Virus record (IMG/VR): IMGVR_UViG_3300045988_124542
Location: 1 to 64,000 of that record
DNA from: a virus
DNA length: 64,000 nt
Direction: 5' to 3' (one strand)
Every line of letters starts with the position of its first letter. Position 1 is the stretch's first letter. Both the position numbers and the translations under genes were made by a program. The notes beneath the pieces were generated by a model that did no database searches, was not told the DNA's origin, and saw nothing but the letters and a program-made list of their open reading frames with translations. Shown here piece after piece: positions 1,445 to 56,775 of this stretch.

Positions 1445-4400
1445 ATGACATCAACGTGTATTATTAAAAGAGATAATAAAAATAAAGTTGTTTCTGTCTC
1501 TACCAGATCAGGGGACAGGTCTATGTTGTTTGATAAAATAGCATCTATTCCTCTTATGGAGAATAGGGAACGGGCTACTACTGTTTTTAAAACCGTATTT
1601 TCTAATAAGTTCTTAAAGGCTTTTGGTGACTGGAGAAAGAGAGTGCCTATCAACAAACCGGCTTATAATAAGGTAAAATCCAACATCGATCTTATTCCGG
1701 AAGCCTATAGAGAAAGGGTGCTGGATAAGGCGTCTAAGATGAGTAACCCTGTTCTTGTGTCAAAATCAGATGCACCTTATGAAATCCAAGAATCGGGCTT
1801 TGGATTTTACAGCCAAGATCTGGGTGATAATATTATGTTGGTGGATGCTATGGTTCCGTCAAGTATTTCCGTACCGGAAGGACCTGGAATAGACGCCGGG
1901 CAGTATCTACAAGATGCTATATCTTCGGACTTTACTCCCGTATCTATGGTACAGGATAAGGGTGTTAATTATATGGTTATAAAAGACGGTCTTAAGATAT
2001 TTAGCCCAGAAGAGTTACCACAGACAGATTCTAATCCTGTGGGTGTAACGTATCAGACCGGAGAGCCTCGTTTGTTTTTCATGAATGATCGTAATCAATT
2101 ATTTGAAGATTACGGAGAAGCTCTTCGCTCTGGCGGGAATGATATCAGAATAGGATTCTTATCAGGCATCGTTCAAGAATCTACCGTGGATGGAGTGGCA
2201 GACATTACTTACAAGGCTGGAAAGTATGTTCTTAATAATCCCAAGTCTTTTATACCGGTCATGACCGCTTCTGCTTCTACTTCTTTATCAACAAAAGGCG
2301 GTATAATTAACTACCTTATAAAGAAAGGTCTTTTGTCCGGATCCAAGATATTCGATCCGGAAACAAGAAGCTATTATATTACAGGAGAAGGACATACAGG
2401 ACAAATTAGACTTTTCAATTCAGCCTTATCCTACACTGAGCTCCGTAATCATTTTGGTTCCGATGTTTCCATGAACGACCAGGGTATGATAACCATAAAT
2501 TCATTGGATAATAGTAAGGTAACTATGAGACTCGCCACCGGAGGAACAGAAAGAGTTAGCAAGGAGCAGATAAAGAGCGATCTTAAGTCTGGAAGATACA
2601 ATGAATTGGATGCTAAATACGATCACTTTGATGCGCTTGTAGTTTCATTTATATTAGAAGACAATGATCTTTATGCTGATACTAAAGCTAAGATAGTATC
2701 GGATTATAGCCAAGAGGAACGTAATCAACGAAATTCTATTGTTGAGATACTGAAAACGCTGGGCGTTAGTGTCGTTGGCATGACCGATTATATAGAGAAG
2801 TACCAAACTAAATACGGACACGAACCTTCTGCTAAGGCATTGGCGGATATTGCCAATAACGTAATAGCAGTCGGTGAAGATGCTACTTTGTCTGACTTAG
2901 TAGAAGAAACAGCACACTTTCTCGTAGAGGCGTACAGAGATCAGAATGCTGTTGAATCTGTTTTGCAAGATGTAGAAGGCACTGAAGAATGGAATCAGTA
3001 TGCAGGTCAGTATTATAATACATACGGTAAGGTATATGAAGGCTCTGAACTTGATAATGCTGTTAGGAGAGAAATTCTTGGAAAGATCCTCGCCAGGGAG
3101 ATGCAGACCGGCACAGCACAGGCGCCGGTAGAGCCCACCTCCTTCCTGGGGCGCGTCCGGCAGCTTCTCTCTGGAATTGTAAACTGGCTTAAATCAGCTT
3201 TATCAACCCAAAGACAGGATTTGAATAACGTTATTAAAAATATTCGTGATCTTGCTATTACCGACATAGATAAAGGATTTGATACTTCTCTTTTGAAGGA
3301 TAATGATTTTACATTATATTCCCTTTCTTCTATGAAGAAGAACAAGTTTCTTGAGTCTAAGATCCGGGCATTGAGAAAAACGTTAAGAGACTTACGTCAG
3401 ATAAGCTCTGATAGGGCTGTAACTACGTCTATGACCCTTGCCCAGCTTAAGACCATAGAAGATAAGATAAATAAAGTAGAGACCGAAATAGACAAGAATG
3501 AGATGGCGGCTGCCATGAACAGCATGATCTCTACAGCCGAAGCTCAGGTCAGATACTTAAGCAATGTGGTGAACACCATCCTTCATGGTGATACCAAAGA
3601 CGGTAAGCTTCATTTCAATACCAATGATCGAAAGAACGTAGATATTATCAACAATCAGGTTCTTCCGATCATGAACGATCTTCGAGGATATATCCGTAAC
3701 AGAAGTACCGAATTTGATGAGCGTGAAAAGCAGGATTATACAAATAGGATCAATACCGTCATTGCCGACATCAACGGTATTCAGTCTGATATTAAATCAG
3801 TACAAGATCTTGATGAAAGTACGTTGCTTGACAAGTTAATGAACGAACTTCATGTGCCGGCAGATAAGGTAAAGAGAGTAAAAGAGTTCTTTGATAAGGT
3901 TCAACATGATGTGTCCTGGATAAGTAGGTGGTTTGGTATATTAGAACATTCCTCCAGCCCGTTCAATAACGCTCTTGGAGCTATGATTGCCAAAGACAAT
4001 TACAATGCGATGGTGAATGCCCAGCCCGCCATATCCGACTTCCTGGCATATGCTAAAAAGCATGGTTTTAACAAATCTGAATTTGAAAAACTGCTTCAGA
4101 AAGTAGACGGCAAAACTTCTAATTACCTTCGTAGTGCTCTTGATATGGCTAAATACGATCGTAATAAGAAGCTGGCGCAGATGCGAGCGTTTGCGACTGC
4201 CATGAACATAGAGATATCAGAAGAAGAAATTGGTGATGTGGTTGACAATAACCGTAATTACGTATTTAAAAGAGAAGTAGTTGACAAGGATGGAAATACG
4301 GTTACTGAAAACGCTAAATTCAAACCATCGTCTGATAGAGTTAATACCGATATTTTTACCATCGAGCAGGAAAAGATTTATACAGAACAGATGGAAAAGT

Positions 4401-48554: not shown

Positions 48555-48891
48555 GTTCTTCCCTATTTTAATGTTGTGTGAGATCGCCGGAATCGAACCG
48601 ACTTGCTGCACCATGAATCCCATAAAGCAAATGCTCCGATCTTCGCAGATGGGAGCATTCTGTCTAAAGCATAAGAAAATTAATGAAGAAATTTTTCTCA
48701 CTTACGCCATAGCATCTAAAATAGCTATCAGCACTATTTCTATGACAAACATAATAGAAAATATCTTAAATGCCTTTTTCATATCGCTATCTCCTCCTTT
48801 TTATTTTTTTTTTAGTTCCACAATAAACTGTTCCGGCTCTGCTCCGACCTACGTTCCACCTACAACCGCAGGCCTTAGCCCAAGGCGCCGC

Positions 48892-49161: not shown

Positions 49162-49250
49162 ATTTTAATTGTTAAACATCCCGCTTAAAAAAAAATACTC
49201 ACATAATGCAGTCCTCAACCCTTAATCTGTTGGAAGGAACCTATATAATG

Positions 49251-49336
49251 CTGTTTTAAACCCTTATCATATTGAATTTTGTGGAAATGATCTACAGAAC
49301 ACTGTTTTAAAACGCTTATCTATTGAATTTTGTTGG
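49251..49336. repeat. two ~35-bp direct repeats (CTGTTTTAAA.C..TTATC.TATTGAATTTTGT.GG) 16 bp apart
   Basis: read directly in intergenic DNA. Confidence 0.7.
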
Positions 49337-50064
49337 TAGGGAGTGCCCTCCCTCTCCCCCTCTCCAACTCCCGCTAATCCTCCGGCTTTCCGCATAGAAC
49401 CCACGCCCTACCGCCTCACTACCGGCATACGGAGAGCGCTACAAGCTTATACTCTGGCATGGAGTATGGGGGATTTGGAGATAATATCATTCCATAGAGA
49501 GAATAGAGAGACTTCAGCCCACGCCCTACCGCCTGCTCCTCCTATCAAGATAGATATTCAGACCTATAATCAAAGCCAAAAACGAAAAGCAAAAAACCAT
49601 CACAATATTATACTGATCTGGTCCGTACTCTAACATAGACCTTACTCCAACCGATAAAAAATACAGGTCAGCTACTAATAAAAACCACCACATAAAATAA
49701 AAAATTTACAATAAGTGTGTCCGAAAATACGGGTATCATAAAACCTAACTAATTGATAATCAAGCATACCTTATTTTTAAGAAAAGTACAATAAGACTAA
49801 TTTTCAATCCATAGAGATGAAAAAGGCGGCATCCGACACCCTATTTTGGGTCAGAAAACCGCCTCAAGTTTCGTTTTAGACCAATTTTAACGACATGATA
49901 TAGACAAAATACCGGAATTATATCCGAACGCTCCTATTTTAGTTTCGTTTTAGACCAATATGGCTCACATCCGACGTTCACTCTCAGAATATCCTACCCA
50001 TGAATATAAAGAGTAAGATACAAAAATAGGGCTGCTCCGATATTCGAAACAACCCTATTCCTAT

Positions 50065-50271
50065 TTAAATGCTGTTTATGTTTTCCTTCACGTATGTTCG
50101 TGATGTATGGACTTTGCGTTTGCATTTGTCCTTTCCTGTATCGGCATGATACGCTTCTTTGAGATCACGATACAACATAAATTCACGATACGCTCTTTTT
50201 CGCTTTTCTTTAGCTTCTTTCCTGGACAGACCGCGGACGTCTACCATATGAGATTTAAATTTCCTTTCCAT
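50065..50271 (-). CDS. hypothetical small basic protein
   Basis: 68-aa ORF in otherwise noncoding region. Confidence 0.35.
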   Translation of the reverse strand: MERKFKSHMVDVRGLSRKEAKEKRKRAYREFMLYRDLKEAYHADTGKDKCKRKVHTSRTYVKENINSI

Positions 50272-50294
50272 TTTCTTTATGCTTTAATTATGAT

Positions 50295-50464
50295 TAACTC
50301 CATCTATTAAGTGCTTCAATATAGAAACTCTCCGCCTCTTTATACTCATTTTCACTAAGTGTTTCCACCGTCTCGATATAGTTACGCAATGTTATTTTTA
50401 CGCAACTGTTTTTAGATTTATTGAACGCTTCAATTAAAGCGTTGATCATTGCTTTCTTTTCCAT
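50295..50464 (-). CDS. hypothetical small protein (56 aa, not in ORF track)
   Basis: MEKKAMINALIEAFNKSKNSCVKITLRNYIETVETLSENEYKEAESFYIEALNRWS; ATG start, tandem with 50065-50271. Confidence 0.3.
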
Positions 50465-51046
50465 GCTATTATATTATTTATAATTTAGAGGTTGCTCCGG
50501 AATCGAACCGGACACGCATTCCTATCCTATAGAGATTTTATGCTACAACCAACAGCCCGTAATTAGTACGTAGTTCTTTCGTACAGGCTCGTACTATGTT
50601 GTTATTATATTTTCCGTCTGCTACACTATTTCGCCACACATAACGGCATAGTGTCCTTGCGTTTTGATACGGCACGTCCCTACATGGTAGGCTACATGCT
50701 TGTACCCTGTAATTTAATCTACAGCCTTGTTCTATTTTTCGTGTAAGCAAGTAAGACACGTTTCGATCTGGAGACGAACCTCGTACAACGGTATGCTTTC
50801 TAAACTATACTTACATACCTAACATAAACCGCGCTTATTCAACGTAGTTCATGCAGTAATACCAACCCTTTGACTGCCAACGGCAAGGGCCGGTATATCT
50901 ATCCCCAATATATAAAAGAACTTTTTGTTTTGGTAGCTTCTGTCTAAAGCATTCGCGGGACGTGCACCCACTACCAATGGCGAACAGGCGCGTTAAGGTA
51001 CGCGCCGAACCTTTGGCGGACTTAACGGCGTCCCCCCCCTACCTTG

Positions 51047-51586
51047 TTACTGCTGAGTGCTTTCGTGTGCAAGGTATTCACTTACACACTTTGCCACAGT
51101 GCGAATAGAATAAGATTTGATCTTAACAGCCACATAAGTAGCTTTATACTCGTCGTTTTCTTTTATCAACCATTTAGTGCTTTTTTTGGTCTCCAATGAT
51201 TCGGCAGTAGTAAAACCAAATGATTTATATTCGCTACCGTAAACCACATTCTCAGCGCACCAATCAGCCGTTTTAGCCTCAACGCCTTTCTCTTTGTCTG
51301 CATTGGTATCCTTATACACTTTAGAGTATAAAGCAAATTTAACAAATGTATCGTCAACTTTCGGTAACATTTGGCTACACACAGCTACCAGGCGTTTTTT
51401 ATCCTTGGCGAGGGCTGCAACCTTTACGGCGTATTCTGCCGGTATTTCCAAGGCCTTGCAAATAGACTTAAGATCAGCACCATTAGCAAATAAAGCGTTG
51501 TATAACTTTACAGCACCAACCAAATTTGCAGCATTTTCTTTGATAACAGCGTTCTGTAGCTTGTTAATGTTTTTTTTCGTAATCAT
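51047..51586 (-). CDS. hypothetical protein
   Basis: 179-aa ORF, only substantial gene in the 49.2-52.2 kb noncoding region. Confidence 0.55.
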   Translation of the reverse strand: MITKKNINKLQNAVIKENAANLVGAVKLYNALFANGADLKSICKALEIPAEYAVKVAALAKDKKRLVAVCSQMLPKVDDTFVKFALYSKVYKDTNADKEKGVEAKTADWCAENVVYGSEYKSFGFTTAESLETKKSTKWLIKENDEYKATYVAVKIKSYSIRTVAKCVSEYLAHESTQQ

Positions 51587-52065
51587 AACATTATGTATTT
51601 ATTTGTTAAACAAGTGATATTCAATTCAATAGCCCACAACGCAAGCTATTAACAGATACAGATATAGCGTTATCCAACGGATATACTATATAGGTTCATC
51701 ATGTCAGCATGTGTTATCGCTTTAACACATTGCAAATATACTACTTTTATTGTTACTACAAATATATATACTATCTTTTTTTTGTTAACTTGTATTAATT
51801 TCGATTCTATCATCTGATTATCAGCAATTTACAAAACATACAAGAGCAGTATTATGCGCGTACATTAATATGTGGGATATATGTTTATTTAAGTAGCTTA
51901 TAATCAATAGGTTACAATAATACATTGATTATCAATAATTTAAATAAACTATTGATAATCAGCGAGTTTGTAGGTTTGAGGTAAAAACGCGTTTCCGGTT
52001 TTCCAGCGAAGGGGGTGTGGGGGAGAAAACGCGTTTCGGGGGCGGGAGGTTCGTGATAGGTACCC

Positions 52066-52228: not shown

Positions 52229-52621
52229 TTATTTACTTTCCCATATTAGTTTATCTTCGGCTATTCCGATCTTTACTTCCTCGCACTTTCTTCCTATCCA
52301 TCCATTGAGATACGAGAATGGTTCTGAGTTTTTTACTTCTTCTCCTAAGAAATTAAAAGCTTCAGTAGAAACATGGGATGCTTCATGGCAAACTGTTTCA
52401 AAATCAATTATTTTCTTATTAATAAACCATATCAAAAATCCCGTATTAGGATTTAATTTACACCCTCCGTATGGAACGGATACAGTTACAGCCTTGCTAT
52501 TATATACGTAACTAAAATCGTTATTGAAACATTCTACCATGCCAGATACGTCTTTTCCTACGTATATCCACAGATTAAAAGGATAGACTTCCGGATAGAA
52601 CTGATATAATTCACACTTCAT
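52229..52621 (-). CDS. small HExxH-motif protein (putative zinc metallopeptidase-like)
   Basis: CHEASHVSTEAFNFLGEE (HExxH + downstream Glu); last gene of 4-gene operon. Confidence 0.35.
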   Translation of the reverse strand: MKCELYQFYPEVYPFNLWIYVGKDVSGMVECFNNDFSYVYNSKAVTVSVPYGGCKLNPNTGFLIWFINKKIIDFETVCHEASHVSTEAFNFLGEEVKNSEPFSYLNGWIGRKCEEVKIGIAEDKLIWESK

Positions 52622-53586
52622 TTCGATAAAAGTTTTTTACTTTCAAGGAAGTCCTTAAACTGGTCACTTGATACGTCTATAACGAATCCAGCAGCACCAG
52701 CATGTCCTCCACCACCAAATCTCTTACTTACCTCACAGCAATCTACGCCGTCTTCCACGCATTCATAAAGAGAGAACCGGACTTTACCACCTGGCATAAT
52801 ACAAAATGGCATCAGGGCTTTAATTTTTCTACCATCTAACCAGTCAGGTGTAAGAGAATCAAATACTTTGGAACTAAATTCTGTAGTATTCATCGCCACG
52901 ACCTTAACCTCGTCTACGTAAGCTTCGAACGAGCACGCACTTACCTCTTGTTCGTTTTTGCCGGCCATGTAGTTAATTATAGCACGTCCTTCTTTAGCGA
53001 GATCATAGAAAATTAAATCCACCTCATTGTCCTTCATATTTTCTTTAAAATGGTCATACAAATACGACAATGCTATTAACACATTGAGTCTTATTTTTGA
53101 TCTCAAGGCATACTGGACGGCTACCACCGTATCCCAGCCTAAACCGGATTCTTTATTCCACACATCGTAGTCTGATAAGCACCTGACTATCGCCGGCACC
53201 TTCCCCATCAGCAGGTCCGAGGCCAGTGCGCACGCACCGGTACCGACTCTCCTCAACCCTGGAACTACGAACCCCCATGTCTTACTATCTTCGATAATTC
53301 CCTTGTGATGATCTATCCACATCAGGCTCTTTCCTTCATCAAGCCATTTCTTGAAAATCGTTTTAGAATCGGCTCCGAAAGACACGTCAAGAACGTAAAC
53401 AACCCCACATTCATCTACTTTATCAATAACTTTCTTTACATCATCTTCATACGAATACGGGATATAAATAACATCCTTGTTTTTACTGTTTTCGTACATG
53501 GTTGCGATGGCTGCCGACACAACGCCATCTAAATCCGATTTATGATAAACTATCGCCGTTTTATTCACCTTCATAATATTGCACAT
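52618..53586 (-). CDS. DHH-DHHA1 phosphoesterase (NrnA-like nanoRNase/pAp or cyclic-oligonucleotide phosphodiesterase family)
   Basis: motif I IVYHKSDLDGVVSA, DHH motif WIDHHKG, DHHA1 GGGH motif FGGGGHAGAAG; 322 aa. Confidence 0.75.
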   Translation of the reverse strand: MCNIMKVNKTAIVYHKSDLDGVVSAAIATMYENSKNKDVIYIPYSYEDDVKKVIDKVDECGVVYVLDVSFGADSKTIFKKWLDEGKSLMWIDHHKGIIEDSKTWGFVVPGLRRVGTGACALASDLLMGKVPAIVRCLSDYDVWNKESGLGWDTVVAVQYALRSKIRLNVLIALSYLYDHFKENMKDNEVDLIFYDLAKEGRAIINYMAGKNEQEVSACSFEAYVDEVKVVAMNTTEFSSKVFDSLTPDWLDGRKIKALMPFCIMPGGKVRFSLYECVEDGVDCCEVSKRFGGGGHAGAAGFVIDVSSDQFKDFLESKKLLSK

Positions 53587-53598
53587 AACTACCTAAAA

Positions 53599-54159
53599 TT
53601 ATTTACCAACAAACGTGATAACGTCCATATAGTCAATACCGGCATTCTCAGCACATACCTTATCCGAATCAGAGAACTGCCCTGGCAGACCACTGGCGTC
53701 TCCGACCATCAACGAACATCCCTTAAGTTGACTAAAGTTCATACCACGCATTACCGTGTCTTTACACTTCATAAGAATATCATCAATCATGCCCGTGTTA
53801 GGCTTCCTCATCGGATTTTGTTCGTCATTTGAATAACACAACCTTTTTTCATATAGGACGCCTCTTATGCCACGTTTTACCGCCAGATCATGTACGGACC
53901 TCAGTACGTATTCTATCTTAGCTTCAATATCAGCTCCAGAAACAAACCCAGCTTCTACTCCTCCTTGATTGCTTACGATAGCAAACACCTTAACGCCGTT
54001 CTCCTGCATGAGGTCAAGAGCCTTATTCACCACATCCATCTTAATCCTCATATCTGTCAAGTCTGTAGCGAACGTATTCCCAGAAGCGGTTTCTATAAGC
54101 GTCCCGTCAAAATCGAATAGCAGTATTCTTTTGTTTTTAATATCCAAATCGTTCATCAT
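53599..54159 (-). CDS. HAD-superfamily polynucleotide 3'-phosphatase (PNKP-phosphatase-like)
   Basis: motif I FDFDGTL, IVSNQGGV, KPNTGM, MVGDASG: the four PNK 3'-phosphatase-family motifs. Confidence 0.7.
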   Translation of the reverse strand: MMNDLDIKNKRILLFDFDGTLIETASGNTFATDLTDMRIKMDVVNKALDLMQENGVKVFAIVSNQGGVEAGFVSGADIEAKIEYVLRSVHDLAVKRGIRGVLYEKRLCYSNDEQNPMRKPNTGMIDDILMKCKDTVMRGMNFSQLKGCSLMVGDASGLPGQFSDSDKVCAENAGIDYMDVITFVGK

Positions 54160-56396: not shown

Positions 56397-56413
56397 TGTC
56401 TTACTTTTTTTAG

Positions 56414-56485
56414 AGGCTTGTGGCGGAATCGAACCGCCCTACGAGATTTTGCAGATCCCTGACTAAACCACTCATCCAACAAGCC
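56414..56485 (-). tRNA. tRNA-Cys (GCA)
   Basis: cloverleaf folded by hand: acceptor GGCTTGT/ACAAGCC, T-arm GGCGG-TTCGATT-CCGCC, anticodon loop CTGCAAA; no encoded CCA. Confidence 0.7.
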
Positions 56486-56488
56486 ATG

Positions 56489-56560
56489 TAGCCCATGCCT
56501 GAATCGAACAGGCAACTTTTGATTAGGACTCAAGGGTTTTATCCGTTAAACTAATGGGCC
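56489..56560 (-). tRNA. tRNA-Arg (CCT), slightly atypical
   Basis: acceptor GGCCCAT/ATGGGCT, T-arm GCCTG-TTCGATT-CAGGC, anticodon loop GTCCTAA; one C.A mismatch in anticodon stem. Confidence 0.5.
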
Positions 56561-56630
56561 ATTTAATGTTTGCTATGTTCACACACCACAAACACTTAGA
56601 TAATTAACACTTTACACAAAATATGTACCG

Positions 56631-56701
56631 TTATCCAAGGAGGATTCGAACCTCCGCTAACAGAACCAAAATCTGTTGTGCTACCACTACACCATTGGAC
56701 A
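56631..56701 (-). tRNA. tRNA-Gln (TTG)
   Basis: U1-A72 acceptor start typical of bacterial tRNA-Gln, T-arm GGAGG-TTCGAAT-CCTCC, anticodon loop TTTTGGT. Confidence 0.65.
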
Positions 56702-56702
56702 G

Positions 56703-56775
56703 TGGTCCCGGAGGGATTTGAACCCACGATCTCGATGTTATGAGCATCTTGCTTTCACCACTAAGCCACAGGACC
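56703..56775 (-). tRNA. tRNA-Met (CAT) (elongator Met or Ile2 type)
   Basis: acceptor GGTCCTG/CGGGACC, T-loop TTCAAAT, anticodon loop CTCATAA. Confidence 0.65.

Follow-up and report, generated by a model that had tools for sequence, protein, structure and literature searches.

A large structured RNA of human-gut phages that ends in a tRNA-like domain and probably represents a new RNA family

Large, intricately folded RNAs are rare in bacteria and phages, and the known examples have mostly proved to carry out unusual chemistry or to form unusual assemblies. Long RNAs that end in a mimic of transfer RNA (tRNA) include those with the 3' tRNA-like structures of plant RNA viruses, which have pseudoknots upstream of the mimic, and MALAT1-mascRNA of vertebrates, where RNase P cuts 5' of the mimic and so creates the 3' end of the long RNA. 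Among phages and prophages, ROOL (RF03087) and GOLLD (RF01998) are RNAs of more than 500 nucleotides (nt) that combine several pseudoknots with multistem junctions and are encoded near tRNA genes (PMC5737381, PMC12286853); both lie near phage tRNA islands, and GOLLD sometimes has covalently linked tRNAs (PMC12286853). Here we analyse a stretch of 64,000 nt (positions 1-64,000 of the IMG/VR virus record IMGVR_UViG_3300045988_124542; henceforth the window, to which all coordinates refer) in which a first-pass annotation, made from the sequence alone, had flagged a tRNA-like 3' half beside a structured region poor in open reading frames (ORFs). We show that this region encodes a conserved structured RNA, and consider it probable, if some way from certain, that the flagged piece makes up the last domain, at the 3' end, of a free-standing, trans-acting minus-strand RNA of about 525 nt (51012 to 50489) belonging to a new family of large phage RNAs that end in a tRNA mimic.

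The RNA resembles ROOL and GOLLD in being phage-encoded, longer than 500 nt, rich in pseudoknots (three in about 525 nt) and associated with tRNA: a tRNA-like unit is fused to it, and a cluster of four tRNA genes lies at a distance of 5.4 kb. However, it has no detectable sequence or structure similarity to either and is not homologous to them: their covariance models gave no match at E ≤ 10 on the RNA alone or at E ≤ 1 on distant members. Furthermore, the tRNA-like part is here a truncated mimic rather than a working tRNA, and the hosts probably differ, the present phages being from the human gut, with one neighbouring gene of the related phage csAssE-Sib annotated as Bacteroides-like. With the plant-virus structures and MALAT1 it shares a 3' tRNA mimic preceded by pseudoknots, and an RNase P cut at the mimic is the mechanism that, by analogy, we propose below. 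Those systems are eukaryotic or belong to RNA viruses, whereas this one is found in a DNA phage, and its mimic has a canonical T-loop without a D-arm or an analogue of the anticodon loop.

The window is related to csAssE-Sib, a 151-kb human-gut phage with 85.6% identity to it over 1 kb. Judged from the clusters of the protein encoded by the adjacent gene, which hold 1,000-2,700 member sequences, the lineage is a very abundant one among human-gut phages. The element lies on the minus strand, the coding strand of all genes near it, in the gap between an ORF of 179 residues (ORF179, 51047-51586) and one of 56 residues (50294-50464), and 80 IMG/VR contigs display the identical arrangement of genes and RNA. 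In the comparison with csAssE-Sib this intergenic gap is more conserved than the genes that flank it. Conservation sets in directly after the ORF179 stop codon, which gives the 5' limit of the RNA, and at the other side it ends exactly past the strand GCAACC, the following base and the trailer being different in divergent copies; the 3' limit is placed at the discriminator-like U that follows this strand (50489..51012 in all). Among 66 full-length copies the mean pairwise identity of the RNA (51012-50490) is 0.923, rising to 0.959 in its 3' third, as against 0.871 for ORF179 overall and 0.708 at the third codon positions of ORF179.

None of this conservation is that of a protein. Across 48 variants all three reading frames of the RNA are disrupted by indels and stops, and the 73-residue ORF at 50538-50759, which the first-pass annotation had thought spurious, is open in just 10 of 74 relatives, with variable columns spread over the three codon positions as 27, 32 and 18; being seldom open and without a third-position bias, it is indeed spurious. 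The RNA is non-coding. The ORF-poor stretch first noticed at 50560-50950 is real, but it is longer than had been described and reaches 51012.

To characterize the fold we used a structural alignment of 74 distinct copies, from whose covariation a model of 22 helices, 131 pairs and three H-type pseudoknots was derived. In this model 98.6% of the alignment cells are paired and 29 pairs are altered on both sides, compared with 29.6-43.5% and 1-6, respectively, for 3' partners displaced by 1-3 columns; not one of 500 shuffles matched the observed values of pairing and covariation. In some lineages a stem is replaced completely (GUUGCCCUU/AAGGGCUGG by GGUAUCGAA/AAGAUACGG). Moreover, invariant G-U pairs at alignment columns 70-106, 71-105, 86-119, 343-350 and 357-395 would become C-A on the opposite strand, which restricts the fold to the minus-strand transcript. 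Thus, the structured character that had been ascribed to this region is confirmed, and selection on the RNA structure of the element is strong.

The 3' end of the RNA forms a tRNA-like three-way junction (50489..50550, minus; helices 19-22, supported by covariation), in which an acceptor stem stacked on a T-arm is joined by one extra arm. In 5' to 3' order it comprises the acceptor 5' strand GGUUGU (50550-50545), an A (50544), the extra arm, hereafter arm 2 (GCAU-AAA-AUCU-CUAUA-GGAU-AGGA-AUGC, 50543-50516), GUG (50515-50513), the T-arm (50512-50496), the acceptor 3' strand GCAACC (50495-50490) and U 50489, after which the minus strand continues with CUAAA. The T-arm has a 5-bp (base pair) stem, UCCGG with CCGGA, and the 7-nt loop UUCGAUU, which conforms to the UUCRANY pattern of tRNAs and stands beside the acceptor 3' strand as theirs does; its stem covaries, with C-G changed to U-A in three sequences. 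The first-pass annotation had read this T-arm and the acceptor-like GCAACC correctly, and the minihelix that it had drawn, with GGUUGU paired to GCAACC, a GCAU/AUGC stem and no D-arm, turns out to be backed by covariation. One nucleotide separates the acceptor from arm 2, which has a loop of 4-5 nt and closing pairs that covary. Among the members the acceptor stem measures 5-7 bp and the stack of acceptor and T-stem 11-12 bp in total (7+5 bp in L205, one of the distant loci introduced next). The unit lacks the remaining features of a cloverleaf, namely a D-arm, a 7-nt anticodon loop, U33 and an anticodon.

We then examined homologs of ORF179, collected by a full-library HMMER search at identities of 23-42% (loci L203-L215; lower numbers denote members of the close clade, namely L029, L049, L067, L080 and L182). 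Downstream of the homolog, each of the ten distant loci whose length permits a judgement has 310-1064 nt free of genes. The RNA is recognisable there in three lineages (L205, L207/L208 and L211), and its core motifs only are seen in L203/L204, L213 and L214, with nothing recognisable of it in L209, L210 and L215; phages whose ORF179 homolog is only 35-39% identical keep the RNA at the same place. The matches were obtained both with nhmmer and with a covariance model of the 3' domain for L207 (3e-30; 42.4 bits, 3e-9), L205 (8e-27; 57.7 bits, 3e-13) and L211 (5e-11; 22.4 bits, 4.5e-4), all the latter placed where they were expected. In L205 a perfect acceptor of 7 bp, AGCAUAC/GUAUGCU, adjoins the T-arm UAGGG-UUCGAUU-CCCUA and an arm 2 with the shape seen in the window and a different sequence; the acceptor of L207 is GCAUAC/GUAUGC. 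The acceptor, arm 2, the T-stem and the adjoining pseudoknot Z (see below) are fully compensated in the distant members. With L205 and L207 added, 16 of the 29 pairs of the 3' domain are altered on both sides (acceptor 3 of 5, arm 2 6 of 8, T-stem 2 of 5), and 99.6% of cells are paired against at most 42% after sliding, in an alignment that was fitted to the model and so somewhat favours the structure. Farther upstream, pseudoknot A recurs in L207 with unrelated stems (UGUACAC/GUGUGUA and GUGCAA/UUGCAC), while the two core strands and the loop AGAACUACG are invariant from the clade of the window to L205, L207 and L211, the hairpin between the core strands covarying.

Two further observations were made at these loci. 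At the 5' end of the L205 copy (1815-1835 of that locus) GGGUUCGAUU, a same-sense copy of the T-loop region, is followed by AGCAUAC, a second copy of the acceptor 5' strand that could pair with the 3' end. In L213, a sub-threshold Rfam match to the DUF805b RNA (3676-3712; 26.3 bits, E = 0.0015) falls at the 3' end of the ORF179 homolog.

In their sequence the T-arm, the acceptor 3' strand and the trailer are most closely related to the tRNA-Cys of the phage itself (56413..56485, minus). Local alignment of the tail with this tRNA scored 34, where the null distribution has a mean of 13 (z = 9.2) and none of 500 shuffles reached the score, the aligned parts being CGGUUCGAUUCCG...CAA(G)CCUCUAAA with the trailer CCUCUAAA included. 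They have in common the T-loop UUCGAUU, a similar acceptor 3' strand, the same discriminator and trailer (U-CUAAA) and the lack of an encoded CCA, whereas the tRNA-like unit is without the D-arm and anticodon stem-loop and has an acceptor of 5-6 bp. At the level of sequence, then, the 3' part of the tail resembles the 3' end of the phage tRNA-Cys, from which the mimic would derive. The first-pass annotation had also remarked that a core is shared by this tRNA, the present tail and a second tRNA-like element; we recovered it as the 14-nt CCGGAATCGAACCG at 48587 and 50497 and, with one mismatch, at 56423 (three occurrences versus none expected from 100 shuffles). That second element, here element 1, is a conserved module of about 125 nt (48575..48705, minus) between a 27-codon ORF and a 134-residue ORF. 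It combines a long hairpin, which covaries and whose loop is GCGA, with the T-arm GUCGG-UUCGAUU-CCGGC, which by itself matches the Rfam tmRNA (transfer-messenger RNA) model with 9 bits, and it contains an exact copy of the 15-mer AUGCUUUAGACAGAA from the 5' domain of the large RNA (50938..50952, minus); these are the only two perfect copies in the 64 kb, both on the minus strand. The shared sequence marks element 1 and the module of the 525-nt RNA as paralogous. The 15-mer was also considered as a promoter and discarded, as TATGCTTTA is not enriched in the window (37 matches versus 31 expected). Likewise, antisense targets were sought as complementary 11-mers elsewhere in the window; there are 29 versus about 16 expected, and the excess consists of the paralogous copies.

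CCA is encoded by none of the four genuine phage tRNA genes (56405-56775, minus), so that the tRNAs of the phage already depend on the host for processing and CCA addition. RNase P, RNase Z and the CCA-adding enzyme need no more of a substrate than a minihelix of acceptor and T-arm. By analogy, the tail of the large RNA probably recruits the tRNA-processing enzymes of the host. We propose that the RNA would be co-transcribed with ORF179 and that the minihelix would be recognised by the host enzymes of tRNA maturation, with RNase P acting 5' of the mimic, followed by 3' trimming and CCA addition. Such processing would fix the predicted ends of the RNA and could stabilise or release it.

Searches for known families returned little. 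ARAGORN, and Rfam at gathering thresholds, reported four tRNAs only (Met, Gln, Arg and Cys; 56413-56775), and the tRNA-like unit was called neither by RF00005 nor by ARAGORN. Rfam 15 at E ≤ 10 gave no tRNA, tmRNA, intron, RNase P, ROOL or GOLLD match on 49500-52000 or on the RNA alone (50475-51020), and at E ≤ 1 nothing relevant on the distant loci. An RNase P RNA was set aside, its conserved P4 strings being absent and Rfam silent. A scan of viral contigs with a 14-mer yielded mostly chance matches, from which nhmmer retrieved close relatives only. The first-pass annotation had named the lack of both a covariance-model match and a transcript as grounds for refutation; for the known families there is indeed no match, and the structural selection is nonetheless strong. 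We therefore regard the element as a new RNA. No description of it, or of non-coding RNAs of csAssE-Sib, was found in the literature, the comparison not extending to the unnamed candidates of a phage RNA survey that lists 10,006 (PMC10690425).

The body upstream of the tRNA-like unit is described here from 5' to 3' on the minus strand. Its 5' domain (50930..51006; helices 1-4) starts with the hairpin GGCGCG/CGCGCC (51006-50987) and continues with pseudoknot A (50986-50930). In the latter UGUUCGC (50986-50980) pairs with GCGAAUG (50956-50950), and the crossing stem joins UUGGUAGU (50977-50970) to GCUACCAA (50937-50930), with a GGG-UGCACGU-CCC hairpin and the loop CUUUAGACAGAA inside. A GCUU/AAGC hairpin around the 15-mer, reminiscent of a D-arm, was considered and dropped because pseudoknot A covaries and recurs in L207. 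The hairpin loop UGCACGU (50966-50960) holds the self-complementary UGCA and ACGU and is near-invariant in the clade (UGAACGU in L182). Being both self-complementary and near-invariant, it could make an intermolecular kissing-loop contact, and it is the sole hint, read from sequence, of anything like the homo-oligomeric, RNA-only cage of ROOL and GOLLD.

Three variable arms follow (50790..50894; helices 5-9), the site of the complete stem replacement noted above: ACC-GCCCUU-GCC...GGC-AAGGGU-GGU (50894-50861), a second hairpin at 50853-50823 and GGUAUG/CAUACC at 50819-50790. Pseudoknot M (50726..50760; helices 10-11) is made of CGUGU (50760-50756) with ACACG (50744-50740), crossed by CUUG (50751-50748) with CAAG (50729-50726), and shows U-A changed to C-G in 11 sequences, and U-A to G-C and G-C to A-U in seven. 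The middle helices (50666..50724; helices 12-13) consist of a CUGUAG/UUACAG hairpin (50724-50707) and a long arm (50706-50666) with the stems GGUAC/GUAUC (50706-50702 with 50670-50666), GCAUGU/ACGUGC and CCUAC/GUAGG; swaps of U-A to C-G and A-U to G-C are seen here in L067 and L080. The best-conserved core (50610..50668; helices 14-15), the part noted above for its invariance in distant loci, has the strands AUCAAAACGCAAGG (50668-50655) and AGCAGACGGAAAA (50622-50610) on either side of the hairpin ACACUAU/AUAGUGU (50654-50623). Finally, pseudoknot Z (50550..50601; helices 16-18), whose loop contains the invariant AGAACUACG, sits inside a short enclosing helix of CAAC (50601-50598) with GUUG (50553-50550). 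Its stem S1 pairs UAGUACG (50596-50590) with CGUACUA (50570-50564) and its stem S2 GCCUGUA (50588-50582) with UACGGGC (50561-50555), and both are doubly compensated in L029 and L049, and likewise in L205, L207 and L211. The long-range pairings CCUUGC/GCAAGG, GCACGU/ACGUGC and GGGAU/AUCUC were each contradicted by variants and rejected.

About half of the relatives have in addition an optional, covarying hairpin (51015..51036, minus) between the ORF179 stop codon and the RNA, which probably lies outside the mature RNA. Its stems are GGAGAGC/GCUCUCC in some relatives and GGGCGGAC/GUCCGCC in others, and csAssE-Sib is among those in which it is absent. The 5' side of the hairpin, which falls within 51015-51046, contains a run of eight G in the window, as against six or fewer elsewhere.

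Several points weigh against a free RNA with a tRNA mimic at its end. The acceptor in the window has only 5-6 bp, and the discriminator U varies within the clade. A conserved AAGGUU at the 5' end of the RNA could pair with the same 3' strand (AGGUU/AACCU), and analogous 5' complements are present in L203 and L205; through this complementarity the two ends of the RNA may close on each other as in a tmRNA, or the RNA may alternate between the two pairings. L211 keeps the three-way junction, but the loop of its third arm is GUCGGUU and not a T-loop, so that tRNA mimicry is not universal in the family. The RNA ends, the cleavages by RNase P and RNase Z and the addition of CCA are predictions, the processing being predicted from the substrate-like geometry of the mimic. 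Lastly, that the RNA is always linked to ORF179 may point to a cis-acting untranslated region (UTR) or an obligate RNA-protein complex instead of a free RNA.

This last alternative, although we think it unlikely, survives best. According to it the ORF179 mRNA has the element as its cis-acting, structured 3' UTR, or the ORF179 product forms an obligate complex in which the element is the RNA subunit; the element would control the stability, translation or activity of that product, and its tRNA-like end would serve as a 3' stabiliser as in the plant-virus structures. Consistent with this, ORF179 (51047..51586, minus) is the gene immediately upstream of the RNA in every case, the distant loci included; the RNA starts 0-35 nt past its stop codon in every relative, and all ten judgeable distant loci have the gene-free stretch after the homolog, with the RNA in three lineages and core motifs in three more. 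We saw neither a sigma-70-type promoter nor an intrinsic terminator flanking the RNA, whereas a promoter-like site is present upstream of ORF179 and none between it and the RNA, which suggests that the RNA is probably part of a longer transcript; the scan covered sigma-70-type promoters only, and promoters specific to Bacteroidota or to phages would escape it. On the other hand, the known bacterial 3' UTR stabilisers make do with far less than an RNA of about 525 nt that has three pseudoknots and single-stranded cores without variation, and the RNA is more conserved (0.923) than the third positions of ORF179 (0.708) or the gene as a whole (0.871). Furthermore, no distant homolog of ORF179 has an annotated RNA-binding domain. 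The protein has a confident AlphaFold2 model and no structural or sequence relative of known function; it is a possible protein partner of the RNA.

The first-pass annotation had offered three descriptions of the element: its reading as a tRNA-like non-coding RNA stands, the tRNA-like fold being covarying and part of a structured RNA, while the other two, an interrupted or intron-containing tRNA and a tmRNA, fall. In the tmRNA reading, which we consider very improbable, the acceptor would arise from pairing of the 5' AGGUU with the 3' AACCU, a tag frame would lie amid the pseudoknots, and the molecule would be charged and rescue ribosomes. The 3' T-arm and acceptor, the several pseudoknots, one of them directly upstream of the tRNA-like domain, and the conserved 5' AAGGUU with its counterparts in L203 and L205 do recall a tmRNA. 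However, ARAGORN makes no call and the Rfam tmRNA models (RF00023 and its clan) have no match at E ≤ 10, and the G3:U70 pair of alanine identity is absent in either register, position 70 being C or A. The acceptor 5' strand is moreover local, 45 nt upstream of the 3' strand, and covaries perfectly with it in L205 and L207, the latter of which has no far 5' complement. Nor is there a conserved tag frame: every frame is broken by indels of one or two nt and by differing stops, and a candidate ending with UGA/UAA in a hairpin loop (50851-50836) was rejected, its frames being unconserved and its region made of helices with full compensatory swaps.

We attach a similarly slight probability to a tRNA-Cys-like gene split by an insertion of about 470 nt, such as a self-splicing group I intron, and spliced to a working tRNA. 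The 3' part does resemble tRNA-Cys, and the strings GUGUAGCAGACGG and AACAUAGUAC of the supposed insert are loosely like the R and S elements of group I introns. Comparison by eye with the P/Q/R/S elements of group I and with domain V of group II introns showed, however, that the strings resembling these have other pairing partners: what would be the S element forms a strand of pseudoknot Z and covaries with a downstream and not an upstream partner. At E ≤ 10 there is no match to Rfam Intron_gpI or to the group II models, and the P3-P9 core of RF00028 was matched neither here at that threshold nor in the distant members at E ≤ 1. A 5' exon is likewise missing, since no D-arm or 5' strand of an anticodon stem occurs anywhere upstream. 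The tRNA-like unit needs no other part of the RNA for its fold, and its arm has a 4-5 nt loop and neither U33 nor an anticodon.

A decaying tRNA fragment or attachment-site remnant without a function of its own, lying by chance beside unrelated non-coding DNA, would explain why the likeness is limited to the 3' portion of a tRNA, which is what integration into tRNA genes typically duplicates, but is the least credible of all: covariation rules out decay, the stems staying paired through both-sided changes at 0.959 identity across relatives and even beside proteins that are 38-39% identical; none of the 185,579 GTDB species genomes of bacteria and archaea (the host of the window itself not being identified) contains the 23-mer that spans T-arm and acceptor strand, the one 20-mer match in them not being a tRNA; and the csAssE-Sib annotation shows no integrase within the 9 kb that surround the homologous site.

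Two neighbouring features of the window may be recorded. An ORF-poor tract at 49250-49960 contains exact direct repeats of 17-19 nt (CCCACGCCCTACCGCCT twice and AGTTTCGTTTTAGACCAAT twice). Many IMG/VR contigs and one 2.75-kb Logan contig end near 49.3 kb, and the linear csAssE-Sib record ends near the repeat tract, about 1.3 kb past the end of the RNA homolog; the tract may be a genome terminus, an origin or a repeat that breaks assembly. Recurrent Logan contigs of about 2.75 kb were considered as possible transcripts and rejected, an assembly break being likelier because the contig examined ends near these repeats at about 49.3 kb. Between the RNA and the tRNA cluster, the minus strand (52618-54159) encodes proteins of the kind that heal RNA ends, one of 186 residues with a PNK3P polynucleotide 3'-phosphatase domain and a DHH/DHHA1 phosphoesterase of 322 residues.

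Going beyond the family assignment, one might picture a previously unrecognised class of ornate phage RNAs that act as RNA machines, whether as a ribozyme, as a self-assembling scaffold with a tethered mimic or in a complex with ORF179, with the core AUCAAAACGCAAGG/AGCAGACGGAAAA as the active or binding site; this we put forward tentatively, as a possibility and not as our expectation. As a scaffold, the RNA might engage the tRNA-handling or translation factors of the host through its tethered tRNA mimic. What the present analysis establishes is an RNA that is absent from Rfam 15 and in which a pseudoknot-rich body is joined to a tRNA mimic resembling a phage tRNA-Cys. With its helices, three pseudoknots and invariant core mapped, it offers a compact and well-delimited target for work on RNA structure. 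Its tail may show a DNA phage employing tRNA mimicry so that a long RNA is processed or stabilised, and, if the link to ORF179 is functional, the RNA and ORF179 would make up a new RNA-protein pair.

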